Notes: a model not told the origin generated them from the letters alone. A stretch of DNA of 31,090 bases from Pseudomonadota bacterium (GCA_041160585.1 JBEAWD010000191.1:1-31090), one strand, 5' to 3'; shown: positions 12,995-29,807, numbered from the stretch's first letter. Numbers and translations: made by a program.

Positions 12995-13046
12995 GCGCTC
13001 GCTGGCCGGTATGGGGCCAGATTTCTCACCGGCTCAGGGGCGTTCC

Positions 13047-13052
13047 TATACT
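13047..13052 (+). promoter_or_regulatory. Candidate sigma70 -10 hexamer for the spmAB/serine hydrolase pair
   Basis: TATACT about 27 nt upstream of ATG 13080 in otherwise GC-rich DNA. Confidence 0.4.
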
Positions 13053-13079
13053 GCGCGCTCCTACAGCCCGGATCTGCGC

Positions 13080-14327: not shown

Positions 14328-15549
14328 ACGAGGCTTCACCCATGCCGAACTGGCCGCGGCACTGCGCGAAGCCCTGAGGGCCAGCCTCGCCCAAGCGCCT
14401 GCCTTCGACCCCCCGCCCACGCTGGACTTGGCGGTGGTGGCCTTCCCGCATGGCGCGCCGCCCGTGTGGGCCAACGTGCTGGTCACGCGCGGCCACCTCG
14501 AAGGCGTGGTGGCCCGCATCGGTGCTGATGCCGGCCCGGTGCAGGACATCCGTTACCTCGTGGATCCAAGCGACGAACAAAGGCGATCGATCGCCTGGCA
14601 GCCCGGCGCCGATTGGACACGCCTGCAAGGCTTGCGTACGCTGCAGGGCAGTGGTCCCTTCGAATCGATCGCCCCATACCCCGCCTCACTCATCAAGCTG
14701 ATGGTGGCCGTGGGCGTGGGCCTGCTGGTGGACCAGGGCCAGGCCGATTGGAACGAGACCTGGGCCTGGAGCGGAACCACACGACCGGTCGTCGAGTGGG
14801 CCGACCGCATGATCACCGAAAGCCGCAACGACGACACCAGCGCCCTGGTGGCCTTGCTCCATGCGCGGGGACTCATCGAGCGCAATGCCGCTGGACAGGA
14901 AGTGCGCAACGGCCTGCACGAAGCCTTCACCGCCGCGGGCCTTTCCACCCTTCGCCTGGCCAATACCCGGGCCGACGGCGGCTGGCTCAACCGCGATGGT
15001 GCGGGCGTGGGACACCTACAGATGACCGCCTGGGACACGGTGCGCCTGCTGTGGCTGATGCTGCCCGCGGTGATGCCCGATGTCCTGCCACCCCCCTGGT
15101 TGCCGGCTTCCCACCGTCCCCTGATGCGGCCCGCGGCGGCCGCACCGATCTGGCGGCTGCTCGATGAGCAGGCCCTGCACGAGGCGCTGTCGACGTCCAT
15201 CGCAGTCGGGATGCCCGGTTGGCGCGCCGGGATCCCGGCCGAGGTGCCCGAGCGCTGGATACAAGGCGATGGCCGTGTGAAGGCGGCCGATCGCGCCTGG
15301 CCAGGAGACGTGAGGTCTGTCCAGCGCCAAGCCACGGTGCGATTTGCCCACAAGACAGGAACCACGGAGAACTACCTGTCGGACGCCGGGCTGGTGCGCG
15401 GTCGCGCTCCCGGTGGGCGCCGCTACCTGGTGGCGCTGCTCAGCACCTTGGGGTCACGGCATGCGCCGCATCCAAACCTGGCCACCGACTGGTGCATCGC
15501 CGACCTCGGCGCACGCATCGACCGTTGGCTGGCCGACCGACTGGGCTGA
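14320..15549 (+). CDS. Class A beta-lactamase-like serine hydrolase (PBP/beta-lactamase fold), no signal peptide
   Basis: SxxK (PASLIK), SxN (SRN), KTG (HKTGTT). Start overlaps the spmAB stop by 8 nt. Confidence 0.8.
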   Translation: MAERGFTHAELAAALREALRASLAQAPAFDPPPTLDLAVVAFPHGAPPVWANVLVTRGHLEGVVARIGADAGPVQDIRYLVDPSDEQRRSIAWQPGADWTRLQGLRTLQGSGPFESIAPYPASLIKLMVAVGVGLLVDQGQADWNETWAWSGTTRPVVEWADRMITESRNDDTSALVALLHARGLIERNAAGQEVRNGLHEAFTAAGLSTLRLANTRADGGWLNRDGAGVGHLQMTAWDTVRLLWLMLPAVMPDVLPPPWLPASHRPLMRPAAAAPIWRLLDEQALHEALSTSIAVGMPGWRAGIPAEVPERWIQGDGRVKAADRAWPGDVRSVQRQATVRFAHKTGTTENYLSDAGLVRGRAPGGRRYLVALLSTLGSRHAPHPNLATDWCIADLGARIDRWLADRLG

Positions 15550-15688
15550 TCCAGCGAATCGTCTGGCCCATCGGCGTGGGCCGCAAGGTGTTCGATTCGG
15601 GCAACACCGAATCCTCGTGTTTTCCCCTAGAAGCGCGCCAAGCCGTTGAAGTGCACGCGGGCTGGCGCCGCAGCTTGGTCGTCTTATG

Positions 15689-15707
15689 CCATAACCTTGA
15701 CTTATGG
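15689..15707. promoter_or_regulatory. LysR-type recognition box upstream of the TonB-dependent receptor
   Basis: CCATAA-CCTTGAC-TTATGG, a perfect 6-bp dyad containing T-N11-A. A near-copy lies at 27985-28003. Confidence 0.65.
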
Positions 15708-15737
15708 TTTCCGACTGATTCGTCAGCCGGGCATTCG

Positions 15738-15771
15738 CGCAGCACCCGGTGGTGCTGCGTTACATTTTTTT
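15738..15771 (+). terminator. Hairpin plus T-tract (intrinsic terminator-like) upstream of the receptor gene
   Basis: CGCAGCACC-cggt-GGTGCTGCG (9-bp stem) followed by TTACATTTTTTT. Confidence 0.45.
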
Positions 15772-15816
15772 GGTTAAGCACCCGGCCCTCAACTGGGCCA
15801 TGCGTAGGAGATCCGC

Positions 15817-18693
15817 ATGAAACTCAAGCCCATCGTCCAGGCTCTCGCAGCACTCAGCCTGATTTCCCCGGTCTTGGCCCAACAGACCAACCCCCAGCAA
15901 CAGAAGGTGGAGGTCACCGGCTCAAGCATCAAGCGCCTGTCCAATGAAGGGTCCCTGCCCCTGCAGGTGATCACGCGTTCGGAAATCGAGCAGCAGGGTC
16001 TGACCAGCGCCGAACAGGTGGTGCTGTGGCTGTCCACGAACGGCAACGGCCTGGACAACCTGGCCTCCAACGCCGACGTGGTGGGCGGTGCGCAGCGCGG
16101 CAACAACGGCGCCACCAGTGCGAACCTGCGTGGCCAGGGCAGCAACGCGACCCTGATCCTGCTCAACGGTCGGCGCGTGGCGTCTCACGGCCTGAACGGC
16201 GGCGTGGTCGACCTCAACCAGATCCCGATGGCGGCCATCCAGCGCATTGAAGTGCTCAAGGACGGCGCCAGTTCCATTTATGGCACGGACGCCATCGGCG
16301 GGGTGATCAACTTCATCCTGCGCAACGACTATCAGGGCGCCGCGGTCCAAGGCTCGGCCGATGTCACCCAAGCCGGCGGCGGCAACGTCTACCGCAGCTC
16401 GATAGTGGCGGGCACGGGCGATCTCAACCGCGACAAGTTCAACATCATGGCCACCCTGGCGGTGCGTGAACACCAGGTGCTCCGCGGCGATCAGCGCGAC
16501 TTCGTCAACACCTTCCAGCCCAACCGGGGCCTCAGCGTAGACACGCGTGGCACACCCCACGCCACCATCTTCCCCTTGGCCGGCACGCTGTTCCCCACGA
16601 ATGCCTCGACGCCGCTGATTCCTGGCAGCACCACGGTACGGGCCTCCGGTGGCCTGAACGTGCTGGACCTGCCGGGCGCCGAAGGTTGCGGTGCGATCGC
16701 CGGGCAAGCGCCCTATGACGCGTTGCTGTGGAACGTACCCACGGCCGCCCTGTCCTGCGCCTGGGACACCGGACGCGCCGCGGTGCTTCAGCAACCGGTG
16801 AGCGACACCAGCCTGGTGACGCGCGGCACCTTCCGCCTGGGTGACCACCAGATTGCTGCCGAGTTCGTCGGCAGCCAGACGGATTCCGCCAAGCGCTTCT
16901 CGCACGTCCAGCTCACGCCGAACACCACCACGCAGCAGTTGCGCTTCCCGCGCAATGCGGCCTCTCAGGCAGCCTATGACGCGGTGTTCAACCGCCTGCT
17001 GGCGGCCTTCCCGGGTCAGATCACGGAAACCCAGCGGGGCCAACCCCTGGCCTACCGTTGGCGCTGCATCGAATGCGGCCCGCGCGAACTGGAGACCGAA
17101 GCCTCCACGCGGCGCTGGGCCATCATGGCCGACGGTCCCCTGGGTGGCGGCTGGGAGTACCGCGCCGGCCTGATCCAGGCCTCCAGCGAAGCCAAGTCCC
17201 GCCTGGGCACCGGCTACTACTACCGTGGCACGACCGCTACCGGCGCCTCTGATGGTGGCGCGGGCATCATCCCGGCCCTCAACAGCGGACGCATCAACCC
17301 CTTCCTGCTGCCCGGCCAAACGCAAAGCGCCGACGGCCTGGCGGCCCTGCAGGAAGCCTCGGCCGAGGGCGTGGTGCTCTACGGCGGACGCTTCTCGATG
17401 CAGCAGATCGACTTCTCGGCCTCGGGCCCCGTGGCCAAGTTGCCCGGTGGCGACATCATGGCGGCCGTTGGCGCGGACATGCGCACCGAGCGCTACCGCT
17501 TCAATGGCGACGAGCGTGACCTGGCCGCGCAACGCGTGATCGTGGCCGCGCCTTTCGACCAATCCAACGTCCTGCTGGGCGCCAAGCGTGAAGTGAAGGC
17601 CCTCTACGGTGAAGTGCTGCTGCCCATCACCAAGAGCTTCGAGGCCACCCTGTCGGTGCGCCGCGACGACTATTCCGGCTTCGGCGCCACCACCAACCCC
17701 AAGGCGTCGGCACGCTGGAAGCCGAGCCAGCAGTGGTTGGGCCGCGGCTCCTACAGCACCGGATTCCGGGTACCCACCTTCAACCAGTTGTACAACGGCG
17801 CAGCCGAATCCATCTTCACCGGCACCACCCTGGTCGACCCCAAGACCTGCCCGGCAGGCCGACCCAACACCACGGATCCAGGCTGCGCGTTCATCGACCG
17901 CGCCGCCAACATCATCAACGGCGGCAAGCCTGACCTGGGCCCTGAAGAGGCCAAGATGAGTTCGCTGGGCATGGTGTGGGAGCCCATGAACAACCTGAGC
18001 ATGAGCCTGGACTGGTGGAGCATCCGCCGCGAGGGCACGATCCAGATCCTGTCCCTCACGCAGCTCATCGACAACTACAACCTCTTCCCCGACCGTTTCA
18101 TCCGTGACGCAGCTGGCAAGCTGATCGCCGTCGATCAGCGCTGGGTCAACGCCGGCGAGACCGAAACCTCGGGCCTGGAGTTCTCGCTGCGCAACGGCTT
18201 CACCGCCATGGATGCCCGCTGGACAGCGGGCCTGGACGGCACCTATCTGCTCAAGAAGCGCTCACGCGTGGTGTCCTCGGCTGCCTGGGGCCCGAGCGAA
18301 GTGGGCCAGTTCACCTTCGCCGGTGACCTCGGATTGAGCTGGAAACACAATGCCTTCATCAGCCGGTCGAAGGGCTCGTGGATCACCACGCTGTCACAGG
18401 TGTTCCGCAGCGGCTACAACAACCAGGTGCTGCCCGGTGTGGCTGCTGGCGCGGTCACGCCGCCCGACCTCAAGACCAAGGTGGATCCCTACACCACCTA
18501 CAACCTGGCCATGACCTACACCGGCATCAAGAACCTGCGCTTGACCGGCATGGTGCGCAACCTGTTCGACCGCGATCCGCCGTTTGCCATCACCTACGAC
18601 AGCAACTTCGGTTCGGGCAGTTCCTGGGAACCCCGCGTGGCTGACCCGCGTGGTCGCGCCTTCATGCTGAGCCTGGACTACCGGTTCCGCTGA
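15817..18693 (+). CDS. TonB-dependent outer-membrane receptor
   Basis: Signal peptide, VEVTGSSIKR TonB-box region, plug motifs (ANLRGQG, TLILLNGRR, IQRIEVLKDGASSIYGTDAIGGVINFI), barrel motifs (GFRVPT, NLFDRDPP, LDYRF). AGGAG RBS. Confidence 0.95.
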   Translation: MKLKPIVQALAALSLISPVLAQQTNPQQQKVEVTGSSIKRLSNEGSLPLQVITRSEIEQQGLTSAEQVVLWLSTNGNGLDNLASNADVVGGAQRGNNGATSANLRGQGSNATLILLNGRRVASHGLNGGVVDLNQIPMAAIQRIEVLKDGASSIYGTDAIGGVINFILRNDYQGAAVQGSADVTQAGGGNVYRSSIVAGTGDLNRDKFNIMATLAVREHQVLRGDQRDFVNTFQPNRGLSVDTRGTPHATIFPLAGTLFPTNASTPLIPGSTTVRASGGLNVLDLPGAEGCGAIAGQAPYDALLWNVPTAALSCAWDTGRAAVLQQPVSDTSLVTRGTFRLGDHQIAAEFVGSQTDSAKRFSHVQLTPNTTTQQLRFPRNAASQAAYDAVFNRLLAAFPGQITETQRGQPLAYRWRCIECGPRELETEASTRRWAIMADGPLGGGWEYRAGLIQASSEAKSRLGTGYYYRGTTATGASDGGAGIIPALNSGRINPFLLPGQTQSADGLAALQEASAEGVVLYGGRFSMQQIDFSASGPVAKLPGGDIMAAVGADMRTERYRFNGDERDLAAQRVIVAAPFDQSNVLLGAKREVKALYGEVLLPITKSFEATLSVRRDDYSGFGATTNPKASARWKPSQQWLGRGSYSTGFRVPTFNQLYNGAAESIFTGTTLVDPKTCPAGRPNTTDPGCAFIDRAANIINGGKPDLGPEEAKMSSLGMVWEPMNNLSMSLDWWSIRREGTIQILSLTQLIDNYNLFPDRFIRDAAGKLIAVDQRWVNAGETETSGLEFSLRNGFTAMDARWTAGLDGTYLLKKRSRVVSSAAWGPSEVGQFTFAGDLGLSWKHNAFISRSKGSWITTLSQVFRSGYNNQVLPGVAAGAVTPPDLKTKVDPYTTYNLAMTYTGIKNLRLTGMVRNLFDRDPPFAITYDSNFGSGSSWEPRVADPRGRAFMLSLDYRFR

Positions 18694-18700
18694 TACTGCG

Positions 18701-19687
18701 GTGAGGCTGCGGCACCTCGAGGTCTTCCATGCCGTGATGCGCGCAGGCACCGTCAGCGGTGCCGCGCGCCTTCTGCACATTTCCCAACCTGCGGTCACCA
18801 AGGTGCTGCAGCATGCCGAGGCCCAATTGGGCCTCGCGCTGTTTGAACGGGTGCGCGGCAAGTTCTATCCGACGCCAGAGGCGCAGCGCCTGTTCACCGA
18901 AGTCGACCGTCTGCATGCGGAACTCGTGTCGATCCGCCGCCTGGCAGCCAATTTGAAGGCCGGTCCCCAGCAACGCGTGCGACTGTCGGCCACGCCCGCC
19001 TTGGGCGCGACCGTGGTCCCCACTGCAGTGGCACGGTGGGCCCAGCTGTTTGCCGACGGCCACTGCGAACTCGCCACCCACCACACGCGAGAGCTGGTAC
19101 AGGCACTGGTGCTGTCCGAGCTTGATCTCGGCTTCGCCCTGCACGATCCCCATCACCCCGGTGTCTATGCCGAGGTGTTGACCCAGGCGCCGATGATGGC
19201 GCTGGTCCCCGCGCGCGGAGCGGCCCTGCGCGCGCGTTCTGCGCTGAGCCTGGATGCACTGCCCGCGGCCGTGATCGGCTTGGCCCCCTCCGACCCGCTG
19301 GGCATGCGCATCACGGCCGAGTACGAGGCACGAGGTCTGACCCTGCATCCGATGGTCTCGGTGCAAACCTATCAACTGGCTCGGCAATTGGCCGAGGCCG
19401 GCGCCGGCGCGGCCATCGTGGACCCCTTCACGGCCGCCAGTGCCGACCGTGACCGGGTGGCCGTGCGGCCCCTGGAGCCAACCATCCTGGTGCCCCTGGT
19501 GCTGCTCACGCCGGTGTCGGCCCCGCTGTCGCAAGCCGCGCGGCGCCTGGTTCAGGAGGTTCGCGAATCGGCCAGCGCCTGCCTGGCCCGCGCCGGTGTC
19601 CAAGAGTACGAGCCCTCGACACAGCCTCCGATGTCGGGGGCTCTGCCGGTGAAGGCGGCCACGCGTCGGCGGGCTCGCAGCAAGTGA
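18701..19687 (+). CDS. LysR-family transcriptional regulator
   Basis: MRLRHLEVFHAVMRAGTVSGAARLLHISQPAVTK HTH followed by a substrate-binding domain. GTG start 7 nt after the receptor stop. Confidence 0.93.
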   Translation: MRLRHLEVFHAVMRAGTVSGAARLLHISQPAVTKVLQHAEAQLGLALFERVRGKFYPTPEAQRLFTEVDRLHAELVSIRRLAANLKAGPQQRVRLSATPALGATVVPTAVARWAQLFADGHCELATHHTRELVQALVLSELDLGFALHDPHHPGVYAEVLTQAPMMALVPARGAALRARSALSLDALPAAVIGLAPSDPLGMRITAEYEARGLTLHPMVSVQTYQLARQLAEAGAGAAIVDPFTAASADRDRVAVRPLEPTILVPLVLLTPVSAPLSQAARRLVQEVRESASACLARAGVQEYEPSTQPPMSGALPVKAATRRRARSK

Positions 19688-20310
19688 GTGCGGCCATGCA
19701 CCCCGCAGCGATTTCCTGCGAGTCGGTCGCCGATCACCCCGACTTCGTCCACCTGTCGACGCTGACGGAAATCGCGGTGAACATCCGCTATGCCGGCACA
19801 AACAACTTCAGCGGGCGTTGCCTGTACCCGAATCTGGACTGCGCCTGGCTGCGAAGACCGGCGGCCATGGGCTTGCAACGCGCGGCTCGATGGCTTGATG
19901 CCCATCGGCCAGGCTACCGGCTGCTGGTGCTGGACGCACTGCGTCCTCAGCGTGTGCAGGAGGCCATCTGGCGCCAGATTCAACATACGCCCATGGCCGC
20001 CTATTTCGCCGACCCGGTGCGCGGCTCGATCCACTCCTTCGGCATGGCGGTGGACGTGACCTTGCTCGATCCGCAGGGACGCGAGTGCGACATGGGCAGC
20101 GGCTTTGACGAGATGAGCGAGTTGTCGCATCCGGCCTTGGAATCGCAACACCTGGCCATGGGCCGCCTGAGTGCGGATCATCTGCGCGAGCGGGGTTGGC
20201 TGTATGCGGCGATGGCAGCCGGCGGATTTCAGGGGATCACCACCGAGTGGTGGCACTTCGATCAAGGTGACCGTGAACAGGTGCGAAGGGAATTGCAGCG
20301 TGTGGCGTGA
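19684..20310 (+). CDS. ddpX: D-alanyl-D-alanine dipeptidase (M15D, VanX/DdpX family)
   Basis: DALRP, SIHSFGMAVDVTL (SxHxxGxAxD), DMGSGFDE, EWWHF. No signal peptide. Confidence 0.9.
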   Translation: MSAAMHPAAISCESVADHPDFVHLSTLTEIAVNIRYAGTNNFSGRCLYPNLDCAWLRRPAAMGLQRAARWLDAHRPGYRLLVLDALRPQRVQEAIWRQIQHTPMAAYFADPVRGSIHSFGMAVDVTLLDPQGRECDMGSGFDEMSELSHPALESQHLAMGRLSADHLRERGWLYAAMAAGGFQGITTEWWHFDQGDREQVRRELQRVA

Positions 20311-21427
20311 ATCGATTCAATCTCCCCATCGGCGTCGGATGCTGACGGCAGCAGCAGGCGTGATGGTCGGTGCGGCCACCGTGATCAGCTCGCGGGCATG
20401 GGCGCAGGCGCCGATCGTCGGTGCCGCTGCGGGCGGCGGATCCAATACCGCACCGCTGCGGGCACTTCAGCCGCCGCGCCCGCTGATCAAGCCGCCTCGG
20501 CTTCAGCCTGGCCAGACCATCGGCCTGGTGGCCCCATCCGGCGCCGTACCCGAGCGCCTACCCCTGGAGATCGCCCATGACACGCTGACCGCCTTGGGCT
20601 TCAAGGTCAAGGAAAGCCCGCAACTGCGTGCGCGCCGTGGTCACTTCGCCGGTACCGATGAGCAGAGGGCCGCAGGCCTGAACGCGATGTTTGCCGATCC
20701 GGACGTGCAGGGCGTACTGGCCATCACCGGTGGCTCGGGTGCCAATCGGATCCTGCCTCTGTTGGACTACGCGCAGTTGCGCCGCACGCCAAAGTTTGTC
20801 GGCGGTTTTTCCGACATCACGGCCTTGCTGCATGCCGTGCACAGCCAAACCGGCTTGGTCACCTACCACTGCCCGGCCGGGGTGTCGGAGTGGAATGAAT
20901 TCAGCTGGCGCCACTTCAGGGGTGTGGCGATGGAGGGCACGCCCGTGCTGATGCGAAACGAGGCCGACAAGGGTTCGCTGCCCGCCCCGCGCGAGGACCG
21001 TACCCAGACGATCAGGCCAGGCCTGGCGCGCGGCCCTCTGTTGGGCGGGAACTTGGCGGTGTTGTCCTCGCTGTGCGGCTCGCCCTACCTTCGCTCCTTC
21101 GACGGCGCGATCCTCTTCCTTGAGGAAATCAACGAGTACATCTACCGGGTGGACCGCATGCTGTCCACACTGAAGTTGTCCGGTGTGCTGGACCGTGTGG
21201 CCGGCGTGATGATCGGCGCCTTCACCAACTGCAAGCCCGGCGAGGGGTTCTGGACCTTGACGCTCGACGAGGTGTTCGAGGATTACTTCGGTGGCTTGGG
21301 CGTGCCGGTGTACCGCGGCGCCTCGTTCGGCCACATCAAGCGCAAGTTCACCTTGCCCTTGGGCGTGCAGGCCGAGATCGACGCCAACGCCGGCACCGTG
21401 CGGCTGCTGGAGTCCGCTGTGGCCTGA
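20300..21427 (+). CDS. ldcA: LD-carboxypeptidase (S66) with a twin-arginine-like signal
   Basis: IGLVAPSG, GFSDIT (Ser), LFLEEINE (Glu), FGH (His). N-terminus HRRRMLTAAAGVMVGAA...AWAQ. Start placed at GTG 20300 after GAAGGGA. Confidence 0.88.
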   Translation: MWRESIQSPHRRRMLTAAAGVMVGAATVISSRAWAQAPIVGAAAGGGSNTAPLRALQPPRPLIKPPRLQPGQTIGLVAPSGAVPERLPLEIAHDTLTALGFKVKESPQLRARRGHFAGTDEQRAAGLNAMFADPDVQGVLAITGGSGANRILPLLDYAQLRRTPKFVGGFSDITALLHAVHSQTGLVTYHCPAGVSEWNEFSWRHFRGVAMEGTPVLMRNEADKGSLPAPREDRTQTIRPGLARGPLLGGNLAVLSSLCGSPYLRSFDGAILFLEEINEYIYRVDRMLSTLKLSGVLDRVAGVMIGAFTNCKPGEGFWTLTLDEVFEDYFGGLGVPVYRGASFGHIKRKFTLPLGVQAEIDANAGTVRLLESAVA

Positions 21428-21464
21428 GCCTGCAGGCGTGTTGGCGGCAGGGCGCGTAGTGGCG

Positions 21465-23144
21465 CTAACGCGCGGCTGCAGCCGCGCCGCCCGCAGCCAC
21501 CCAATCGGCCACCGCATCCAACACCGGTCGACCGCGGCGGGGTGCTTCGTCGTGGTTGACCATGGCCGCCATCACCCACCGGCGCCCCTGTGCATCCTCC
21601 ACATAGCCGGCCAGGGCCACCACATTGCGCAGTGTGCCGGGCTTCAGGCGCGCACGGCCGCGCGCGGGCGTGTCGGTCATGCGACTGCGCAGTGAGCCAT
21701 CCACGCCGGCCACCGGCAGGCTCATCATCAGCTCGCTGGAAAACAGCTGGCCGTGAGCAGCCTGCAGCACCATCGCCAATTGGCGCGGGGTGATGCGCTC
21801 GCTGCGCGACAAGCCCGAGCCGTTGTCCATCACCAAACCCTCCAAGGGTATGCCGTGCTGCGTGAACCAACGCCGCACTGACGCATCGGCCCAGTCTCGT
21901 GTGCTGCGATCGGGCGCCGCGGCCGCGCCAGCTGTACCTTGCGCGCGCTTTTGTTCTTCAAGCCCCGTGAGCAGATACAGCACGCGCGTGGCCACGTTGT
22001 CCGAGGTCTTGTTCAAGGGCCGCAGCCACTCGCCCCAAGGGCGTGCCTCACGACGGGCGATCAGGCGCGTGGCCTGGCCCGCGGGCGGCTGGGCGTTGGC
22101 CGCAGCCTCCGGCACCCCATTGAGCGCGGTGCTGGTGTAGGCGAATTCGCCCGGGGCCGCCTCCCTCACTCGCCCGTTCCATTGACCACCCAACTCGTTC
22201 CACACCCAACGCAGTTGCGCCTGTGCCTGCAGGTTGCGCTCCATGAGCTGCAGGGCCGGACGCTGTGTGCAGTCGGTGGGGTATCGACCCTGCAGGCGCA
22301 CGACGACCGTGCCCTCACGGTCTTGCTCAAAGGTCGGCGTGATCCATCCGGCGGTGCTCCAATCCCGACAGGCCACCGAACCCGGGGCGTGCAGGGTCAG
22401 CCGGTTGTCCACACGCACGCCGGGCAGCTCAGGCCGCAGCTTGGCAACCACCTGCTGGCGGTCGGACACCAGCTCCAGCCCGTGCAGGTTGCCGCTGAGT
22501 TGGAGCGCGTCCGGGATCACGTTGTAGGGAAACTCGGGGGACTCATCGAATGGCGGCACACCAAGGTCCAGACGCGCCGGTTGGAACAGATGGCGGTCCA
22601 ACACGATGTTGCCGTCAATGTGCCGCACGCCGGCTTCTCTCAGTTCCAGCATCAAGGCCCACAACTGCGGAAGGCCCAGTTCCAGATCGGCACCGCCGCG
22701 CAGCAGCAGATCGCCCTTGAGCCGTCCCCCTTCGATGGGTGCGGCGGTTCGCAACTCGGTGTAGCCGCGCAGGTTCGGGCCCACGCGGTCCAGCGCCACC
22801 GCACTCGTGACCACTTTCATGGCTGAGGCGGGCTGCATGGACCGATCGGCCTGGTGCAGCCAGCCCGATGAAGGGGCTGAGCCCAGCGCCACACCACCGC
22901 CTACGGCCTGGCCGGAATGCCCCAAGGGCAAGACCGCCACAGCCAGGGTCGATGGGTCGAGGCCGGCCTTGTCCAGGGCTGCCCTCACCGACGCTGGAAA
23001 GGCGGGCGGCGTTGGCCCCTGGTGGGCACACCCCGCCAGGGCCAGCAGGCACGCAAAGCCCCAAACGGCCCGTGACTTGGGCCATCGGCGCTGGGTCGGG
23101 TGGCCTGCGCTGAGGCCGCTGCGGATCGAATCGATGGATTGCAT
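21465..23144 (-). CDS. dacB: D-Ala-D-Ala carboxypeptidase/endopeptidase PBP4 (S13), lipoprotein; third motif reads KPG
   Basis: Lipobox LAGC, PASAMK (SxxK), SDN, DNGSGLSR, LPVAGVDG, KPGT. ATG 23144 is preceded by TATGAT-N6. Confidence 0.88.
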   Translation of the reverse strand: MQSIDSIRSGLSAGHPTQRRWPKSRAVWGFACLLALAGCAHQGPTPPAFPASVRAALDKAGLDPSTLAVAVLPLGHSGQAVGGGVALGSAPSSGWLHQADRSMQPASAMKVVTSAVALDRVGPNLRGYTELRTAAPIEGGRLKGDLLLRGGADLELGLPQLWALMLELREAGVRHIDGNIVLDRHLFQPARLDLGVPPFDESPEFPYNVIPDALQLSGNLHGLELVSDRQQVVAKLRPELPGVRVDNRLTLHAPGSVACRDWSTAGWITPTFEQDREGTVVVRLQGRYPTDCTQRPALQLMERNLQAQAQLRWVWNELGGQWNGRVREAAPGEFAYTSTALNGVPEAAANAQPPAGQATRLIARREARPWGEWLRPLNKTSDNVATRVLYLLTGLEEQKRAQGTAGAAAAPDRSTRDWADASVRRWFTQHGIPLEGLVMDNGSGLSRSERITPRQLAMVLQAAHGQLFSSELMMSLPVAGVDGSLRSRMTDTPARGRARLKPGTLRNVVALAGYVEDAQGRRWVMAAMVNHDEAPRRGRPVLDAVADWVAAGGAAAAAR

Positions 23145-23283
23145 GCGCCCATCATAAGTAGACGTTGCCGATACACGGGCCATGCCTTGCGGTAATGGAT
23201 GGCATTGAAGTTGGCATCCAGCCCGAACGCATCAGGGCTGCAGCGGGTGTGTGGGCGCCCGGGGCCGGCGCACAATAGCGCGC

Positions 23284-24141
23284 ATGCAACCTCTCTTGCG
23301 CCTTGGTGCCCTGCGTCGGCCCTTTGCAGCCGGTTGGGCCGCGCTCGCCTTGGCCTTGGCCTCGGTTCTGGGCTTGGCCGGTTGCGCCGGCCCCCGCATT
23401 GATGCCCACACCTACCAGGCCGTCAGCCATGACAGCCGCGCCCAGTTCCTCATACTGCACTACACGGCCTTGGACCTGGAGCAGTCCATCCGCGTCCTCA
23501 CACAGCAACGGGTGTCCTCACACTATCTGGTGACGGACGAGGCCACACCGCGCATCTATCGGCTGGTCGACGAAGACCGACGCGCCTGGCATGCCGGGGT
23601 CAGCGCTTGGGACGGTCACGCCATGCTCAATGGCAATTCGATCGGCATCGAAATCGTCAACCTGGGCAACCGGGCAGGAACCGATGGCCGCCCGACTGAA
23701 TTCCAGCCCTATCCGCCCGCGCAGGTTGAGCTTGTGGTGGAACTGGTGCGCGACATCGTCAAGCGCCATCAGATACGACCCGACCGCGTGCTGGGGCACA
23801 GCGACATCGCACCCCAGCGCAAGATCGACCCCGGCCCGCTGTTTCCCTGGAAAAGGTTGGCCGAAGAGGGCCTGGTGCGGTGGCCCAAGGATGAAGCGGT
23901 CCAGGAGGCGCTGGCGCTCTATGGCGCGTCCGTGCCACCGGTTCCCTGGTTCCAACAGGCCTTGGCCAAGCATGGCTTCGTCGTGGCCCAACACGGCGAA
24001 CTCGACGAGCCCACCCGGCGCGTTGTCGCGGCATTTCAGATGAAGTACCGGCCCTCGAAGTACGACGGCCAACCCGACGCCGAGACAGCGGCCCTCCTCA
24101 CCGCCCTGACCGGCCTACGCCACGTGGCCAAGGCACCATGA
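23284..24141 (+). CDS. amiD: N-acetylmuramoyl-L-alanine amidase (Amidase_2, AmiD-like lipoprotein) with C-terminal PG-binding domain
   Basis: Lipobox LAGC, LHYT, VSSHYL, RAWHAGVS, SIGIEIVN, GHSDIAPQRKIDPG, AFQMKYRP. Confidence 0.9.
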   Translation: MQPLLRLGALRRPFAAGWAALALALASVLGLAGCAGPRIDAHTYQAVSHDSRAQFLILHYTALDLEQSIRVLTQQRVSSHYLVTDEATPRIYRLVDEDRRAWHAGVSAWDGHAMLNGNSIGIEIVNLGNRAGTDGRPTEFQPYPPAQVELVVELVRDIVKRHQIRPDRVLGHSDIAPQRKIDPGPLFPWKRLAEEGLVRWPKDEAVQEALALYGASVPPVPWFQQALAKHGFVVAQHGELDEPTRRVVAAFQMKYRPSKYDGQPDAETAALLTALTGLRHVAKAP

Positions 24142-25757
24142 GCCTTTCGCGGCGGCTTTGGCTTGAGCAGTCGGCGTGCGGCGCAGGGATCGCCGCAGCA
24201 ACCCTGCTGGGCACCGGTTGCAGCGCCTGGACGGATGCGTCCACGCAAACCTCAGGGACTCCGTCGGGCAGCCAGCGCTTGCCAAGCGTCGATCTGGAGG
24301 CATCGGCCTTGCCCGCAGCGCCACTTCGCGAGTGGCGCGCCGCCTGGGTGGCCAGCGTGGCGCACATCGACTGGCCCAAGCAAGCCGGCCTGTCGGCCAC
24401 CGAGCTGCGCGGGCAGATCCTGCAGATCGTGCAGCGCACACAGGCCATCGGCCTGAACGCGCTGATCCTGCAGGTGCGCCCTGCAGCCGATGCGCTGTAT
24501 CGCTCCGAGCTGGAGCCTCCCAGCGAGTACTTGAGTGCCGGCGGACAACCCGAGCTCGGCTTCGACGCCCTGCAAGAGTGGATCACCGTTTCCCATGCAC
24601 ACGGACTGGAGCTGCATGCGTGGTTCAACCCCTACCGCGCGCGGCACCCCTCGGCGCGCCAGCCCATCCATGAGAATCACGTGGCCCGTCGGCGTCCAGA
24701 GTGGGTTCACCGCTACGGTGACTTCCTGTGGCTGGACCCCGGTCACCCCGAGGCCCAGGCGCACAGCCTGAACGTCATCAGCGATGTCGTGCGCCGCTAC
24801 GACCTCGATGGGGTGCATGTCGACGACTACTTCTATCCCTATCCCATCAAGGGCAGCGACGGCCGCGACATCCCCTTCCCCGATCAGGAGAGCTTCAAAC
24901 GCTACCGCCGAGCGGGGCTTTCGGACAACGATGCCGACCGGGCCAAGTGGCGCCGCGAAAACGTGGATCGCTTCGTCGAGCAGATGTACAAACGCACCCA
25001 CGCGCTCAAGCCATGGGTGCAGGTGACCATCAGCCCATTCGGTATCGGTCGACCCGATCGAAGGCCCAGCGGCATCGCCGGCTTCAGCCAATACGACCAC
25101 TTGCATGCCGATGTCGAACACTGGTGCGAACAGGGATGGCTCGATGCGCTGGTGCCGCAGCTGTACTGGCCTCGCAACCGTCCAGCACAATCCTTCGAAA
25201 AGCTGTTGGACTACTGGCTGTCGGCCAATCCGCAGGGGCGCCATGTATGGCCCGGCCTTTACACGAGCTCGGTTGCCAACGGCACGCCGACAGCGTGGGC
25301 GCCTGAGGAGGTTCTGTGGCAGATCGACCGGCAGCGCGAACGCCGGGCCTCGACCGGACATGCCCATTTCAGCCTGCAGGCCCTGATGCAAGACCGCGGC
25401 GGCCTGGCCACCGAGCTGCCGCGATCCCGCTATGCCTCTGCTGCCCTGCCCCCGGCCACGCCGTGGTGGGGTACGGGCACACCACCATCGGCGCCACAGG
25501 CGTACCGGCAGCCCGATGGCCGAATCGCCTTGTCCAGCCCCGCTGCCGTGCCGTCGGGCCCATCCACGGCGCAGGACGCGCGCCGCTTCCTCGTGTGGCG
25601 CCGGCCTGCGGGCAACGGATCAAGCAGCTGGACGCTGCGCGTGGTGCAGGCTCAACACACACTCGACGCCGGCAAGTCCGACGAGCTCATCGTGGTGCAG
25701 GCGATCGACGCCGTGGGTCGAGAAGGGCCGCGCCGGGCCTTCATCGCGAGGGCTTGA
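24138..25757 (+). CDS. GHL10 family glycoside hydrolase (YddW/DigH-like), Tat lipoprotein
   Basis: SRRLWL plus LGTGC; EWRAAWVASVAHIDWP, LQVRPAADALY, LHAWFNPYR, WLDPG, YDLDGVHVDDYFYPY, PQLYW. ATGA overlap with amiD. Confidence 0.88.
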   Translation: MSLSRRLWLEQSACGAGIAAATLLGTGCSAWTDASTQTSGTPSGSQRLPSVDLEASALPAAPLREWRAAWVASVAHIDWPKQAGLSATELRGQILQIVQRTQAIGLNALILQVRPAADALYRSELEPPSEYLSAGGQPELGFDALQEWITVSHAHGLELHAWFNPYRARHPSARQPIHENHVARRRPEWVHRYGDFLWLDPGHPEAQAHSLNVISDVVRRYDLDGVHVDDYFYPYPIKGSDGRDIPFPDQESFKRYRRAGLSDNDADRAKWRRENVDRFVEQMYKRTHALKPWVQVTISPFGIGRPDRRPSGIAGFSQYDHLHADVEHWCEQGWLDALVPQLYWPRNRPAQSFEKLLDYWLSANPQGRHVWPGLYTSSVANGTPTAWAPEEVLWQIDRQRERRASTGHAHFSLQALMQDRGGLATELPRSRYASAALPPATPWWGTGTPPSAPQAYRQPDGRIALSSPAAVPSGPSTAQDARRFLVWRRPAGNGSSSWTLRVVQAQHTLDAGKSDELIVVQAIDAVGREGPRRAFIARA

Positions 25758-25782
25758 CGCTGCGCCTGCGGCACGCGGTCAC

Positions 25783-26679
25783 ATGAGCACGCCCCCCACC
25801 CGTACCGAATCCACCAACGACGCGCATGCCGACTTGGACCGGTATGACACGTCCACCCTCGTGGGCGCCCTCATCGACGATCACGCGGTGGCCGTGCAAG
25901 CGGTCAAGGCCGCCGCAGCGCAGTTGATGGTCGCCGTGGAGGCAAGCGCCGAACGCCTGGCGCGGGGTGGGCGTCTGATCTATGCGGGTGCGGGCACCAG
26001 TGGCCGGTTGGGCGTGCTGGATGCGGTGGAGCTCAACCCCACCTTCTCCTGGCCACGCCATCGCGCCCCGGCCCTGCTGGCCGGCGGCGACGGCGCCATG
26101 TTCTTGGCGGTGGAAGGTGCCGAGGACGATGGTGCGCAAGGCGCGCAAGACCTGCACCGCCTGGGTCCGCGCCCCGAGGATGTGGTGTTCGCCATTGCCG
26201 CCTCCGGCACCACACCGTTCGCGCTGGGCGTGCTGGCCGCCGCGCGTTCATTGGGTTGTCTGACCATCGGCATGGCCAACAACCCCGACGCTCCCCTGGT
26301 GAGCGTCGCTGAGATCGGCATCGTGCTGGACACCGGCCCTGAAGTGATCTCCGGCAGCACGCGCCTGAAGGCCGGCACCGCACAGAAGGTGGCACTCAAC
26401 AGTTTTTCAAGCGCGGTGATGGTGCGCTTGCACAAGGTGTACGGCAACCTGATGGTCGACCTGCGCGCCACCAACATCAAGCTGGTGCAGCGCGCGGTGC
26501 GCCTGACCATGCAGGCCAGCGGCGTCGGTCAGATGCAGGCCGAGGCCGCCCTGCGCGAATGCGGCTTTCAGGTGAAGGTGGCCGTGGTGATGCTGCGCTT
26601 GGGGCTGGACGCTGAGGCGGCACAGGCGCGGTTGGCCGCTGAGGCCGGCAACCTGCGCGCTGCCCTGGGGGAAGCCTGA
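25783..26679 (+). CDS. murQ: N-acetylmuramic acid 6-phosphate etherase
   Basis: RTESTN, GAGTSGRLGVLDAVELNPTF, AVEGAED, GPEVISGSTRLKAGTAQK, NLMVDLRATNIKL. Confidence 0.95.
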   Translation: MSTPPTRTESTNDAHADLDRYDTSTLVGALIDDHAVAVQAVKAAAAQLMVAVEASAERLARGGRLIYAGAGTSGRLGVLDAVELNPTFSWPRHRAPALLAGGDGAMFLAVEGAEDDGAQGAQDLHRLGPRPEDVVFAIAASGTTPFALGVLAAARSLGCLTIGMANNPDAPLVSVAEIGIVLDTGPEVISGSTRLKAGTAQKVALNSFSSAVMVRLHKVYGNLMVDLRATNIKLVQRAVRLTMQASGVGQMQAEAALRECGFQVKVAVVMLRLGLDAEAAQARLAAEAGNLRAALGEA

Positions 26680-26682
26680 AGT

Positions 26683-27930
26683 TCAGGCTGTACCGAGCGC
26701 AAACGAGTCGCCCTGCAGCTCAACGGGCAAGGCCAGCCCGTTCATCTGCGAGGCCAGCAATTGCGCGCTGCCTGCGGCGAAGGTGAAGCCCAAGGCACCG
26801 TGCCCCAGGTTCAGCCACAGTCCGGGCACGCCGCTGGGCCCCACGATGGGCGCACCGCTGGGCGTGGCCGGGCGCAGACCGGCCCATGGCTCGGCGGCCG
26901 CATAGTCACCGGCTCGCGGCATGTCCGCGCGCGCCACCCGCAGCAGGGATTGCAGCCGTCGCTGGTCGATGGCCTCGCTGTGGCCCACCAGATCGACCAT
27001 GGCCGCCACGCGCAGCCTCTGGCCGATGCGCGCATACAGCACCTTGCGATCGAAGTCGGTGATGCTGGCACGCGGTGCCACGTGTTCGGTCCCGATGGGT
27101 GCGTCCAGGCTGTAGCCCTTGAGGGGATACAGGGGCAGCTTCAGCCCCAAGGGCGAGGCCAGTTGGCGGCTGGCGATGCCGGCGGCCAACACCACTGCGT
27201 CAGCACCGTGGGTGGCTTGCGCGCCGATCAGGGTCACGCGCCCACCCTCGGGCACCAGGCGCTGCACGCTGTCCAACACCATGCCGTCGAACCTGGGATG
27301 CGCCTGCAAGCTGGCCATCAGGCTGGTGCAGAAGGCGTGGCAGTCGGCCACCGCTTCGTCATGGCTGTAAATGCCCCCGGCCACCTGCGGCCCCAGGTGC
27401 TCCAGGGCCGGCTCCTGCGCCATGCACTGTGCGCGATCCCAAGCCTGCTGGGTCGCATCCATCGACGCGGCCGCGCCCTTGAGCGACGAGGCGCTGCGGA
27501 ACAGCACCAGCTTGCCGGCCTGTTTCCATTCAAAGCCCTGAACGCCCTGCTCGTGCATGAGTTGGTGCAGACAAGCCCGGCTGTATTGGCCCAGCCTTGC
27601 CAGACGCGCGGCCGTGGCCCGGTTGTCGCGACCGTTGCATAGCGCAAGAAAGCGCCCTAGCCAACGCCATTGGATGGCTTCGGCCTGTGGCCGCCAGCGC
27701 AAGGGGCCGTCAGGGTCGAGCAACCAGCGCAAGGCCTTCAGCGGAACACCCGCATCGGCCAGCGGGGCCACATAGCGATAGCTCAGCTGCCCCCCGTTGC
27801 GAAGGCTCGTGCCCTGCGCCACGCCGCGGGCATCCAGCAGGCGCACGCGCCAACCGGATTCAGCCAGGGCCCATGCGGTGGTAATGCCCACCACGCCGGC
27901 GCCCAGGACAACGGCATGCCCCTTCATCAT
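26683..27930 (-). CDS. FAD-dependent D-amino acid dehydrogenase (DadA superfamily; looks DguA/D-glutamate type)
   Basis: GAGVVG FAD motif, NGGQLSYRYVAPLADAGVPL, YPLKGYS, WAGLRPATP, GHGALGFT. Confidence 0.85.
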   Translation of the reverse strand: MMKGHAVVLGAGVVGITTAWALAESGWRVRLLDARGVAQGTSLRNGGQLSYRYVAPLADAGVPLKALRWLLDPDGPLRWRPQAEAIQWRWLGRFLALCNGRDNRATAARLARLGQYSRACLHQLMHEQGVQGFEWKQAGKLVLFRSASSLKGAAASMDATQQAWDRAQCMAQEPALEHLGPQVAGGIYSHDEAVADCHAFCTSLMASLQAHPRFDGMVLDSVQRLVPEGGRVTLIGAQATHGADAVVLAAGIASRQLASPLGLKLPLYPLKGYSLDAPIGTEHVAPRASITDFDRKVLYARIGQRLRVAAMVDLVGHSEAIDQRRLQSLLRVARADMPRAGDYAAAEPWAGLRPATPSGAPIVGPSGVPGLWLNLGHGALGFTFAAGSAQLLASQMNGLALPVELQGDSFALGTA

Positions 27931-27937
27931 CGGGCAC

Positions 27938-27946
27938 AGGGTAGCA
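27938..27946 (-). promoter_or_regulatory. Extended -10 element (TG-C-TACCCT) 7 nt before the dehydrogenase ATG
   Basis: Minus strand TGCTACCCT-gtgcccg-ATG; no Shine-Dalgarno visible. Confidence 0.45.
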
Positions 27947-27984
27947 AGGCGCTGCCCGCGGGCAGATCACGATCGAACGCGGAG

Positions 27985-28003
27985 CCATAACCAGCGGTCA
28001 TGC
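27985..28003. promoter_or_regulatory. Second LysR-type box, about 64 bp upstream of the D-amino acid dehydrogenase start
   Basis: CCATAA-CCAGCGG-TCATGC shares GCCATAACC and T-N11-A spacing with the 15689 box. Confidence 0.55.
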
Positions 28004-28035: not shown

Positions 28036-29007
28036 TCAGCCCCCGGCCAATCGCCGGCTGGGCTGCGCCAGGTAGAACCACTCCTGGCGAGCGGCGGCTG
28101 CCGTGTTGGGAAACATGATGCGGCCATCGCCGGGCGCATGCACCTCCTGCCCGTCCTGGCGCACACCGATCAGGTCTCCGGCCTTCAGGGCGTCGAAGCT
28201 CTGCCAGTCGCGCGAAAAGCGGTCGTCGGGGTGGCGCTTGTCCACCACCTCGTGCAGGGACAGGGTTTCGATGTCCCGTTCGCGCGCCGGTGGCGCATCG
28301 TTGGTCAGGCCAAAGTGCGCCAGCGTGCGGCGCACGGCCTGGTACGCCACCTCGGGCGCGTTGGGGTCGCGGTGCTGTCCGCACTCCAGCGTGAGGGCGC
28401 GGCCGCCAATCGAGCGCATGTACTCCGTCGTGCCCACGCCGTAGTTGGGGTTCAAGTCCAGTCCCCCCGCACGCTCGCCCGCCTCTTCACGCCGGCGGGC
28501 CACGCCCCGCACATAGGTGCCCAGCCAGCCGTCCACCACCCGGTCCACGCCGAGCACCTGAACCCAGGCTTCCTCGTCGGCCGCATGCCGAAACGGTTCG
28601 GTGCCGCCACGGTTGTTTCGCGGGCCCAGCATGGCGAAGGGCTTGCCCTGCGCATTGAAGGAGTGCAGGTCCAGGAGCACCTCGTGCGCGGCCATCAAGG
28701 GGCACAACCAGTTGGCCACATGGTCCTCAAACTCACGCGCCACCGCGGCGGGGCCCAGTGCGCGGTTGAGGTTGCGGTCACCGTTGCGCGTGCCCTTGTG
28801 GAAAGCCAGCGCATTGGTGACCGGCACCAGGGTGAGCTGGCCACGTGCCACCACCACCTCGCCCCGGTCGATCTCATCGATCAGGCGGCGCAGGGCGTGC
28901 GTGCCGCACACCTCGTTGCCATGCACGGCGGCGGTGACCAAAAGCTTCACGCCGGGCGCAGACCCGGCGTAGCTGACCGATTTGAAGGGGTGGAGGGTCG
29001 GGCTCAT
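28036..29007 (-). CDS. Succinylglutamate desuccinylase/aspartoacylase-like (M14 Zn) hydrolase
   Basis: VHGNE, NLNR, LDLHS, LTLECG, C-terminal barrel-sandwich-like segment. ATG 29007. Confidence 0.82.
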   Translation of the reverse strand: MSPTLHPFKSVSYAGSAPGVKLLVTAAVHGNEVCGTHALRRLIDEIDRGEVVVARGQLTLVPVTNALAFHKGTRNGDRNLNRALGPAAVAREFEDHVANWLCPLMAAHEVLLDLHSFNAQGKPFAMLGPRNNRGGTEPFRHAADEEAWVQVLGVDRVVDGWLGTYVRGVARRREEAGERAGGLDLNPNYGVGTTEYMRSIGGRALTLECGQHRDPNAPEVAYQAVRRTLAHFGLTNDAPPARERDIETLSLHEVVDKRHPDDRFSRDWQSFDALKAGDLIGVRQDGQEVHAPGDGRIMFPNTAAAARQEWFYLAQPSRRLAGG

Positions 29008-29017
29008 GCGCCCATTG

Positions 29018-29716
29018 TCACGCCACGCGGACCTTGAGTTCGCCCAGTCCGTCGATGCCACCGTGCATCAGCTGCCCGCGCTGCACCGCGGCAACCCCTT
29101 CGGGAGTCCCGGTGTAGATCAGGTCACCAGGGGCCAGCTCGAAAAATCGCGACAGCGTGGACACAATCTCCGGCACGCTCCAGATCAGATGGGTGATGTC
29201 GCTGCGTTGACGCGCTTGCCCGTCCACCGTCAGCCAGATGCCCGCCTGCGCCACATGGCCGCATTGCGCCACCGGCACGATGGGAGCAATGGGTGCGGAG
29301 TGGTCAAAGGCCTTGGAGATGTCCCAGGGGCGTCCCTTGTCGCGCATGGCGAACTGCAGATCGCGCCGCGTCATGTCCAGCCCCACGGCATATCCGGCCA
29401 CCAGGCTCAGAGCCTGATCCTCGGGCACATCGCGCCCACGGCCCCCGATGGCCACCACCAATTCGATCTCGTGGTGGTAGTTCGCGGTCTGGCTGGGGTA
29501 AGGCACCACGGCCTCCTGCCCCGGGGTGCACACCACCACGGCATTGGCCGGCTTACAGAAGAAAAACGGGGGCTCGCGGTCGGGGTCGAAACCCATTTCC
29601 CGGGCGTGGGCGGCATAGTTGCGGCCCACGCAGTACACGCGACGCACCGGAAACAGCTCGGCACGGCCGGCCACGGGCACCCCAACGGGTGCTTCAGGGG
29701 GGAAGAGGTAGTTCAT
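29018..29716 (-). CDS. Fumarylacetoacetate hydrolase family protein (acylpyruvase type)
   Basis: VYCVGRNYAAHAREM, FFCKP, HHEIEL, GLDMTRRDLQ, SKAFD, GDLIYTGTP. Confidence 0.92.
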   Translation of the reverse strand: MNYLFPPEAPVGVPVAGRAELFPVRRVYCVGRNYAAHAREMGFDPDREPPFFFCKPANAVVVCTPGQEAVVPYPSQTANYHHEIELVVAIGGRGRDVPEDQALSLVAGYAVGLDMTRRDLQFAMRDKGRPWDISKAFDHSAPIAPIVPVAQCGHVAQAGIWLTVDGQARQRSDITHLIWSVPEIVSTLSRFFELAPGDLIYTGTPEGVAAVQRGQLMHGGIDGLGELKVRVA

Positions 29717-29761
29717 GACCGGGTATTGTGGACTGCGCCCAACACCGTCGGAACATCGGTG

Positions 29762-29773
29762 TTTCCTAGGAAA
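29762..29773. promoter_or_regulatory. Perfect 12-bp palindrome in the divergent FAH/small-protein promoter region
   Basis: TTTCCTAGGAAA; a partial second copy TTTCTAGGAC at 29789-29798. Confidence 0.4.
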
Positions 29774-29807
29774 GACAAGCACTTGCGATTTCTAGGACAA
29801 TAGCGGG

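Follow-up and report, generated by a model that had tools for sequence, protein, structure and literature searches.

The subject of this analysis is a 31,090-bp stretch of DNA from a Pseudomonadota bacterium (hereafter, the window), which is an entire contig of a 2.44-Mb assembly (genome G000; 65.5% GC, 92% complete) and which, judging from its gene content, is a peptidoglycan recycling or scavenging locus. The window contains three copies of a short interrupted dyad, one each upstream of a TonB-dependent receptor gene, an amiD-like amidase gene, and a gene for an FAD-dependent D-amino acid dehydrogenase. We consider it highly probable that these boxes are recognition sites of LysR1, a LysR-type regulator of the DguR family encoded directly behind the receptor, and that through them LysR1 co-regulates three units, the operator having spread and the regulator gene having been relocated. 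The units would be the receptor-lysR1-ddpX-ldcA operon, the amidase-GHL10-murQ operon, perhaps together with the divergent PBP4-like gene, and the DguA-type dehydrogenase gene. A first-pass annotation of the same DNA had already linked the receptor and dehydrogenase boxes; both sites proved to be real, but a third box (23181-23198) was missed, as was a second regulator, LysR2, which is present in one relative.

Box 1 (GCCATAACC-ttgac-TTATGG; 15688-15707, plus strand) lies 119 bp before the receptor ATG at 15817, and contains the core CATAAC-cttga-CTTATGG at 15690-15707 with perfect 6-bp arms (CCATAA/TTATGG). Box 2 (CATGCC-ttgcg-GTAATGG; 23181-23198, plus strand) belongs to the amiD operon and is found in the gap between the S13 peptidase gene and amiD, where its CAT doubles as the S13 start codon and its center is ~95 bp before the likely amiD ATG at 23284. 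Box 3 (27984-28003, minus strand) precedes the dehydrogenase gene, and its center lies 63.5 bp from the ATG at 27930, in agreement with the ~64 bp given in the first-pass annotation, which had located this string and that of box 1 correctly. That annotation read box 3 on the plus strand, as GCCATAACC-agcgg-TCATGC. However, the best-conserved half of the motif is GTTATGG, which is promoter-proximal, and the dehydrogenase box should therefore be read on the minus strand, where it becomes CATGAC-cgctg-GTTATGG (28002 down to 27985). Oriented with transcription, the three boxes share the consensus CAT-N8-GT(T/A)ATGG with the core ATAAC-N5-GTTAT. The T-N11-A arrangement originally noted for two boxes, in which the T and A of the interrupted dyad are 12 positions apart, is found in all three boxes of the window and in all orthologous sites.

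One 9-mer in common is weak evidence on its own in 31 kb, and the search pattern of the first-pass annotation had been derived from both sites. This pattern has four matches in the window, compared with 0.2 expected from shuffled sequences, and the genome-wide scan that the annotation had proposed returned four sites in the 2.44-Mb assembly, of which only two, both on this contig, are intergenic. The matches on contigs C77 and C168 fall inside open reading frames (ORFs) and were treated as chance occurrences. Tests independent of this pattern agree. A weight matrix derived from an alignment of 13 sites, of which 11 come from other genomes, ranks boxes 1 and 3 first in the genome (scores of 24.3 and 24.0), with the next site (19.0) being inside an ORF, and it also flagged 23180-23199, i.e., box 2, in the 67-bp S13/amiD gap (14.1). 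The relaxed motif YAT-N8-STWATR occurs exactly three times in the 31 kb, in all cases at an operon start, and the 7-mer GTWATGG likewise occurs exactly three times in the window, always within the 5% that is intergenic.

The boxes are conserved in related genomes, the nearest of which are metagenome-assembled genomes (MAGs) from lakes and ponds labelled Burkholderiaceae, Rubrivivax sp., or Betaproteobacteria. LysR1 orthologs with 80-90% identity and a syntenic locus were found in five members of the genus, and more distant copies (56-70% identity) in two other genera. Every genus member with LysR in the operon (G000-G004 and G006) has all three boxes, even though the surrounding DNA diverges. 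CATAAC and TTATGG upstream of the receptor show no variation among six genus genomes, against a mean column identity of 64%, and a weaker but recognizable box 1 is found in G023 and G020 from two other genera. Box 2 is retained at the equivalent position in five relatives (L012-L016), and box 3 has been kept before the dehydrogenase gene in G001-G006, G020, G023, and G317, the last three of which represent other genera of the family. Its conservation persists where the neighboring gene differs or where the dehydrogenase is found on another contig. These footprints, within the genus and in other genera, bear out the idea that the boxes first noticed represent one conserved type of operator, with the motif retained upstream of orthologs.

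In the 100% complete genome G001, three of the five genome-wide matches to a loose version of the pattern are these same three promoters. The fourth falls in a gap by genes for an NMT1-type binding protein and a POR-type oxidoreductase, where nothing suggests a link, and the fifth lies within ORFs; both were treated as chance. In a class-wide sample of 300 genomes, the dehydrogenase clade adds, beyond the window's own genome, the box-bearing G317, and the 41% identical dehydrogenase of G138 has no box. Beside box 2 of G002 (L016:9545-9600), the right half-site GGTAATGGGGC is repeated approximately fourfold in tandem with an 11-nt period, corresponding to one helical turn per copy.

The same association extends across genera and orders. 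The nearest non-orthologous homologs of LysR1 (29-43% identity) adjoin dehydrogenases of the same clade, together with the same dyad, in four cases. Cupriavidus basilensis has a perfect CCATAACC/GGTTATGG palindrome between regulator and dehydrogenase, Ferrovibrio has a divergent pair with the dyad, and in an Acinetobacter MAG the pair and its dyad are followed by RidA. In G016 (L053:7433-7511), two inverted CATGCC-CAAAA-GTTATG copies, 45 bp apart, lie between a divergent operon for an amino-acid binding protein and an Asp/Glu racemase and a dehydrogenase homolog. Among ~50 loci (~20 kb) with LysR1 homologs, the motif was found with at most one mismatch in six, including all three that have an adjacent dehydrogenase. 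We also sampled 250 genomes from the order to which the Acinetobacter MAG belongs (Pseudomonadales). Five of them (5.1-6.7 Mb) have a dehydrogenase with 48-52% identity divergent from a regulator that is 43-48% identical to LysR1 but only 23-29% identical to LysR2, and all five gaps contain (C/T)ATAAC-N5-(G/T)TTATGG, with GTTATGG being read in four. In the one such locus that was checked (L140), the genes downstream of the dehydrogenase encode RidA and an SBP_bac_3 protein, an order that we take to be the dguRABC layout. The box was thus found wherever LysR1 or a homolog adjoins the dehydrogenase, and it is missing in G008, where there is no LysR1. In a Pseudohongiella MAG, a one-mismatch box (L076:9959-9973) is found 40 bp upstream of a 34% identical LysR1 homolog, with a TonB-receptor-like gene ~1.3 kb downstream (L076:12205-13878), a combination of LysR and receptor that may have arisen independently.

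These comparisons make LysR1, from its sequence and distribution, the best candidate for the binder of the three boxes, as the first-pass annotation had supposed of the LysR behind the receptor. The gene (18701-19687, plus strand) starts 7 nt after the receptor stop codon and encodes a protein with HTH_1 and LysR_substrate domains, which is present as a single copy with no paralog in the assembly. It is located inside the receptor operon, ~8 kb from the dehydrogenase gene, from which it is not divergent. The family assignment made originally holds, as LysR1 shares 43-48% identity with the regulators that are divergent from the dehydrogenase in dguRABC-like loci. Among NCBIfam models, it best matches PRK11013, with a score of 138 bits that is below the cut-off of 288, and this match is explained by the resemblance between its DNA-binding domain and that of Escherichia coli LysR (~60% identity, compared to 29% overall). 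The recognition helix of LysR1, SQPAVTKVLQHAE, is identical in three of four aligned Pseudomonadales-type regulators and differs by one residue in the fourth, whereas those of E. coli LysR (SQPTVSRELARFE) and LysR2 are different.

Genome G008 provides a natural deletion. Here, the same string of genes is found on a single 45-kb contig, but the beta-lactamase-like gene leads straight to ddpX; the receptor and LysR1 genes are missing from the locus contig, and none of the three boxes is present. Since the locus lies on a contiguous contig, an assembly gap is excluded, and because the G008 dehydrogenase nests inside the box-bearing clade, its state represents a loss. Traces of the neighboring conserved blocks remain.

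Relative to the predicted transcription starts, the box centers would fall at approximately -63 (box 3), -75 (box 1), and -57 (box 2), compared to the ~55-80 bp upstream that is typical of sites for LysR-type transcriptional regulators. The ends of RNA contigs agree with these estimates, but a scan for consensus promoters found nothing. The predicted promoter positions rest on conserved -10-like hexamers. For the receptor, the candidate -10 is TACATT (15761-15766, plus strand), located within the conserved block GCGYTACATTTT, of which a trace remains in G008; box 1 lies 62-63 nt before this hexamer. For the dehydrogenase, the candidate is TACCCT (27938-27943, minus strand), which is conserved across orthologs as TA(C/G)(C/G)CT. 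The center of box 3 is 51 nt from it in both genomes measured (the window and L012), while its spacing from the ATG is variable, and this constant spacing would place the box center near -63 and make the dehydrogenase mRNA of the window near-leaderless. The value for box 2 was derived from a less certain -35-like hexamer.

Receptor RNA contigs from four lake metatranscriptomes (three studies) begin at 15796-15842, i.e., 30-45 nt downstream of TACATT, and stop at 18744-18804, although these ends are approximate, as they stem from assembled metatranscriptome contigs. No contigs from these metatranscriptomes cover 15005-15605. The receptor is the deepest part of the locus, and depth drops three- to tenfold over lysR1 and beyond. 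We take this to mean that the receptor is transcribed from a promoter of its own, located downstream of box 1, and yields more RNA than any other gene of the locus. Over the dehydrogenase, the longest of the contigs listed end at 27906-27912.

Several potential RNA structures are found in and around these transcripts. The gap between box 1 and the receptor contains a GC-rich hairpin (15737-15770), whose sequence varies while the palindrome is kept in most genomes, followed by the conserved GCGYTACATTTTT. This region could be an insulating terminator whose T-run doubles as a -10 element, or simply promoter DNA. Further upstream, after the beta-lactamase-like gene, the block GGCAACAC ... TCGTGTTTTCCCC (15588-15636) scored as terminator-like and has alternative GTGTT/AACAC pairings; its sequence is conserved across the genus and partly in G008. 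Finally, a strong GC hairpin (18740-18770) lies within the first 70 nt of lysR1, where contigs from three metatranscriptomes end (18744-18804), and it may be a site of partial termination or processing that keeps the level of the regulator low.

The dehydrogenase (26683-27930, minus strand) matches the Pfam DAO profile (5.8e-58) and NF001933, in the latter case with 411 bits, which exceeds the cut-off of 383 but is characteristic of the lowest-scoring group among the paralogs examined (405-418, compared to 652 for the canonical type). The motif NGGQLSYRYVAPLADAGVP, from which a Dgu-like enzyme was first proposed, is located at residues 45-63. An AlphaFold 2 model of the enzyme (mean predicted local distance difference test score, pLDDT, of 89.7) has a template modeling (TM) score of 0.94 to Q9HU99, 'D-amino acid dehydrogenase 2' from Pseudomonas aeruginosa PAO1, which is the best structural match in Swiss-Prot and is 49% identical over 412 residues; identity to 'D-amino acid dehydrogenase 1' (DadA1) from the same strain is 35%. 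In phylogenetic trees, the enzyme belongs to a long-stemmed clade (support 99-100), which spans 20 rows in one tree (support 99) and includes the genes of dguRABC-like loci. The clade is separate from E. coli DadA, from an Lrp-linked paralog in a genus relative, and from a second group of paralogs, so that the enzyme does not group with DadA, the outcome that would have spoken against the original proposal. Sequence comparison thus indicates that the dehydrogenase is DguA-type, with D-Glu as its predicted substrate, and that the module as a whole, considering both proteins, is of the DguR/DguA type. The second paralog group includes a gene from the same assembly (C208:2-1039, minus strand), which encodes another D-amino acid dehydrogenase and is cut by the contig end. 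Approximately 2.5 kb from it, C208:3510-3752 encodes a LysR N-terminus with 42% identity to LysR2 over 85 residues.

We propose the following model for the circuit. The ancestral module would be a regulator-dehydrogenase pair. In this genus of freshwater Burkholderiaceae, the regulator gene would have moved behind that of an outer-membrane receptor, and copies of the operator would have arisen at two more promoters, such that a CATAAC-N5-GTTATGG dyad now precedes each predicted transcription start by ~57-75 bp. The receptor would let wall fragments in, and enzymes of the locus would strip and cut them, freeing a D-amino acid, most likely D-Glu by homology, that would bind LysR1. LysR1 would then activate import along with its own gene, as well as the breakdown of sugars and peptides, and, with lysR1 and the receptor gene sharing a transcript, induction would reinforce itself in a positive loop. 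By also activating the dehydrogenase, which would remove the inducer, LysR1 would close a negative loop. What the data establish are the sites, their conservation and co-inheritance with a DguR-family regulator, the family relationships, and abundant receptor RNA in lakes; LysR1 binding, activation rather than repression, the effector, and the receptor cargo are what we infer here. For D-Glu or another stem-peptide D-amino acid as effector and for the import of wall debris by the receptor, both of which were suggested in the first-pass annotation, the arguments come from homology and gene context; D-Glu is the likeliest effector given the homology and the RidA, racemase, and binding-protein contexts of relatives.

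Some observations weigh against LysR1 acting at the three boxes as a Dgu-type regulator. The G008 deletion is a single evolutionary event in a genome that is only 77% complete, and G005 has a second, unrelated LysR gene divergent from the dehydrogenase. Box 1 is near -75 rather than -65, the 15737-15770 hairpin with its T-run scored as terminator-like and could be a terminator that overlaps the candidate -10 region, and a consensus sigma-70 promoter scan of the three gaps found nothing. Furthermore, partner genes for RidA or a solute-binding protein are absent from the window, the neighbors of the dehydrogenase being murQ and the AstE-family gene, and the effector domain of LysR1 is only ~40% identical to those of the Pseudomonadales-type homologs, so ligand specificity may differ. 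Lastly, Q9HU99 is only presumably PA5084, the dguA of He et al. 2014.

The boxes might be bound by another regulator, either LysR2 or an unlinked factor, with the position of LysR1 being incidental. In G005, LysR2 (L023:3-830, minus strand; TTG start) is divergent from the dehydrogenase with the box in the gap between them, the classic place for a divergent LysR, and decayed N-terminal remnants of the gene adjoin the dehydrogenase in G002 (L016, ~14400-14520) and G003 (L014, ~14450-14480), with nothing left in the window. The dehydrogenase promoter may therefore once have had two regulators. However, LysR2 was not found in G000-G004 or G006, which include 99-100% complete genomes and all keep the three boxes, it is only 27% identical to LysR1 with a different recognition helix, and across orders the box accompanies homologs of LysR1 rather than LysR2. 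LysR2 was ruled out as the binder on these grounds, and given that the boxes and LysR1 are gone together in G008, we regard control by any other regulator as very improbable. Even less credence can be given to the notion that the similarity between the boxes arose by chance, or that the dyad is a hairpin in the transcripts instead of a protein-binding site on DNA. It is true that one common 9-mer is expected by chance somewhere in 31 kb, that box 1 and box 3 of the window could form 6-bp hairpins, and that terminator-like structures are found nearby. Chance is at odds with a motif that is restricted to three promoter gaps, tops the genome ranking, and is conserved over genera and orders. As for RNA, the contigs start downstream of box 1, and in several genomes the left arms of boxes 2 and 3 lack complementarity to their right arms, meaning that no hairpin is conserved; we therefore ruled out this interpretation of the dyad.

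With LysR1 as the binder, the question becomes what it senses. One scenario, which we put forward only tentatively, is that a DguR-family D-glutamate sensor was recruited in this uncultured genus as the master switch of a self-contained locus for peptidoglycan debris, in which a free D-amino acid, released from the imported wall fragments, would induce the receptor, the periplasmic and cytoplasmic breakdown enzymes, and the dehydrogenase that consumes this signal. The TonB-dependent receptor would in that case be dedicated to muropeptides or stem peptides, with the co-transcribed regulator supplying positive feedback. Alternatively, LysR1 would bind the boxes but respond to a wall-derived peptide, a sugar-peptide, or the keto-acid product in place of free D-Glu; the effector could then be meso-diaminopimelate (mDAP), the tripeptide L-Ala-D-Glu-mDAP, or an anhydro-muropeptide, by analogy with AmpR or E. 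coli LysR. The latter responds to diaminopimelate, and it is with this protein that LysR1 shares ~60% identity in the DNA-binding domain and its best NCBIfam model, but the overall identity of only 29% limits the force of the comparison. AmpR demonstrates that LysR-type proteins can sense muropeptides (PMC13046382). The effector domain of LysR1 has also diverged from its Pseudomonadales-type homologs, and the regulon is wider here than D-Glu catabolism. Against such an effector, relatives of the regulator are found in loci without wall genes, next to RidA, an Asp/Glu racemase, amino-acid binding proteins, and an Amidohydro_3-family amidohydrolase, and these contexts point to a free acidic D-amino acid. 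Taken together, we find an effector other than free D-Glu unlikely, if still worth considering.

The remaining genes of the window, mapped through matches to Pfam and NCBIfam profiles together with start-codon checks, are consistent with a role in peptidoglycan turnover. The left third contains nagA, a major facilitator superfamily permease gene, a sugar kinase-like gene, and related genes, followed by genes for a Gate-domain membrane protein (12756-14327, plus strand) and a beta-lactamase-like protein (14320-15549, plus strand). The receptor (15817-18693, plus strand; 958 residues with Pfam Plug and TonB_dep_Rec_b-barrel domains) is the first gene of operon A. Downstream of lysR1, whose stop codon is overlapped by the ddpX start, are genes for a D-Ala-D-Ala dipeptidase of the DdpX/VanX type (19684-20310, plus strand; Peptidase_M15, PRK10178 at 142 bits) and an LD-carboxypeptidase of the LdcA type (20171-21427, plus strand; Peptidase_S66 and S66C). 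The true start of ldcA is uncertain, with the S66 domains beginning at ~20519. An S13 (PBP4-like) DD-peptidase gene (21465-23183, minus strand; Peptidase_S13) is divergent from amiD. Operon B consists of the genes for the amiD-like lipoprotein amidase (23284-24141, plus strand; Amidase_2 with PG_binding_1), a GHL10 glycosidase-like protein (24138-25757, plus strand; GHL10), and the MurNAc-6-P etherase MurQ (25783-26679, plus strand; SIS, NCBIfam MurQ at 358 bits). If the amidase starts at ATG 23284, it has a lipoprotein signal with the lipobox LAGC (window 23284-23400) and would be an envelope-anchored enzyme.

Directly upstream of the dehydrogenase is a gene for an AstE/AspA-family amidohydrolase (28036-29061, minus strand; AstE_AspA_cat), followed by genes for an FAA-hydrolase family protein (29018-29782, minus strand) and Lon (30034 onward, minus strand). 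The AstE-family gene is linked to the dehydrogenase across the genus, and in G023 the two are divergent with the box between them. We speculate that its product could be an acyl- or peptidyl-D-Glu hydrolase that releases D-Glu. In G003, ~4 kb has been inserted between the two genes (L014:14585-18228), encoding an FAD_binding_2 oxidoreductase, a ferredoxin-like ORF, and a TctC-type binding protein; the dehydrogenase box is still present. Searches of the Protein Data Bank with the sequences of LysR1, the AstE-like protein, and the dehydrogenase gave only distant, uninformative matches. Rfam and tRNA scans of the window returned no matches. Between the FAA-hydrolase gene and the end of lon (29816-30033), metatranscriptome depth is very high, reaching ~140-430 (run X19), and this RNA, which is outside any Rfam family or tRNA, may be a stable fragment of the lon 3' end or a small RNA.

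A sizeable part of the dissolved organic nitrogen in aquatic environments consists of peptidoglycan and its D-amino acids. To the best of our knowledge, the means by which bacteria of the plankton detect foreign wall debris and take it up are poorly defined. The circuit proposed here is a concrete one, in which a DguR/DguA pair has been rewired so that one operator would serve a receptor, muropeptide-processing enzymes, and D-amino acid oxidation. It suggests a candidate class of substrates for a TonB-dependent receptor that is so far an orphan and has abundant RNA in metatranscriptomes from lakes and, if true, would define the first receptor-regulator pair for the uptake of foreign peptidoglycan in plankton.

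Among known systems, the TonB-dependent transporter NixC from Xanthomonas campestris has been proposed to take up peptidoglycan degradation products and is encoded beside amino-sugar catabolism genes, but the Nix regulon is controlled by GlcNAc, i.e., the sugar part (PMC4173781). A DguR-type LysR, linked stem-peptide peptidases, and a D-amino acid dehydrogenase are features of the locus described here and not of that regulon, and our literature search returned only GlcNAc-regulated receptors in Caulobacter and Xanthomonas. AmpR is a LysR-type regulator that ties the levels of cell-wall fragments to gene expression (PMC13046382). However, it was not among the NCBIfam or PDB matches of LysR1, so no close sequence relationship turned up, and, unlike in the AmpR-AmpC system, the targets here are genes for uptake and catabolism rather than a beta-lactamase, and the likely ligand is a free D-amino acid. 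The E. coli LysR-lysA system differs in that the lysA-lysR gap carries a different dyad. With the DadR(Lrp)-DadA-DadX system of E. coli and Pseudomonas, the locus shares the broad enzyme subfamily (NF001933 above the cut-off) and the fold (TM score of 0.9), but the dehydrogenase belongs to a separate clade (35-36% identity to DadA), and the window contains no gene for an Lrp-type regulator or an alanine racemase. An Lrp-linked paralog, with 41% identity, does occur in a genus relative.

The closest parallel is dguR-dguABC from P. aeruginosa, which reportedly functions in D-Glu/D-Gln utilization (He et al., 2014, PMID 25082951, as cited in PMC10926688). Both systems combine a LysR-type regulator with an FAD-dependent D-amino acid dehydrogenase, the two enzymes belonging to one clade (that of the window is 49% identical to 'D-amino acid dehydrogenase 2'), and the dguRABC-type loci of Pseudomonadales share with the window not only 43-52% sequence identity but also the ATAAC-N5-GTTAT dyad and, in three of the four aligned regulators, the recognition helix. 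The DguR-family operator motif was indeed recovered through this cross-order comparison. In the window, however, the regulator is 8 kb away in a TonB-dependent receptor operon and not divergent, RidA and binding-protein partners are absent, with an AstE-family hydrolase as the conserved partner of the dehydrogenase, and the operator is also found at two additional promoters driving genes for peptidoglycan import and breakdown. We did not find these two added targets, the receptor operon and the amidase-murQ operon, described for systems of the DguR/DguA kind, and the locus would thus be a case of regulon growth through the spread of an operator combined with relocation of the regulator gene.

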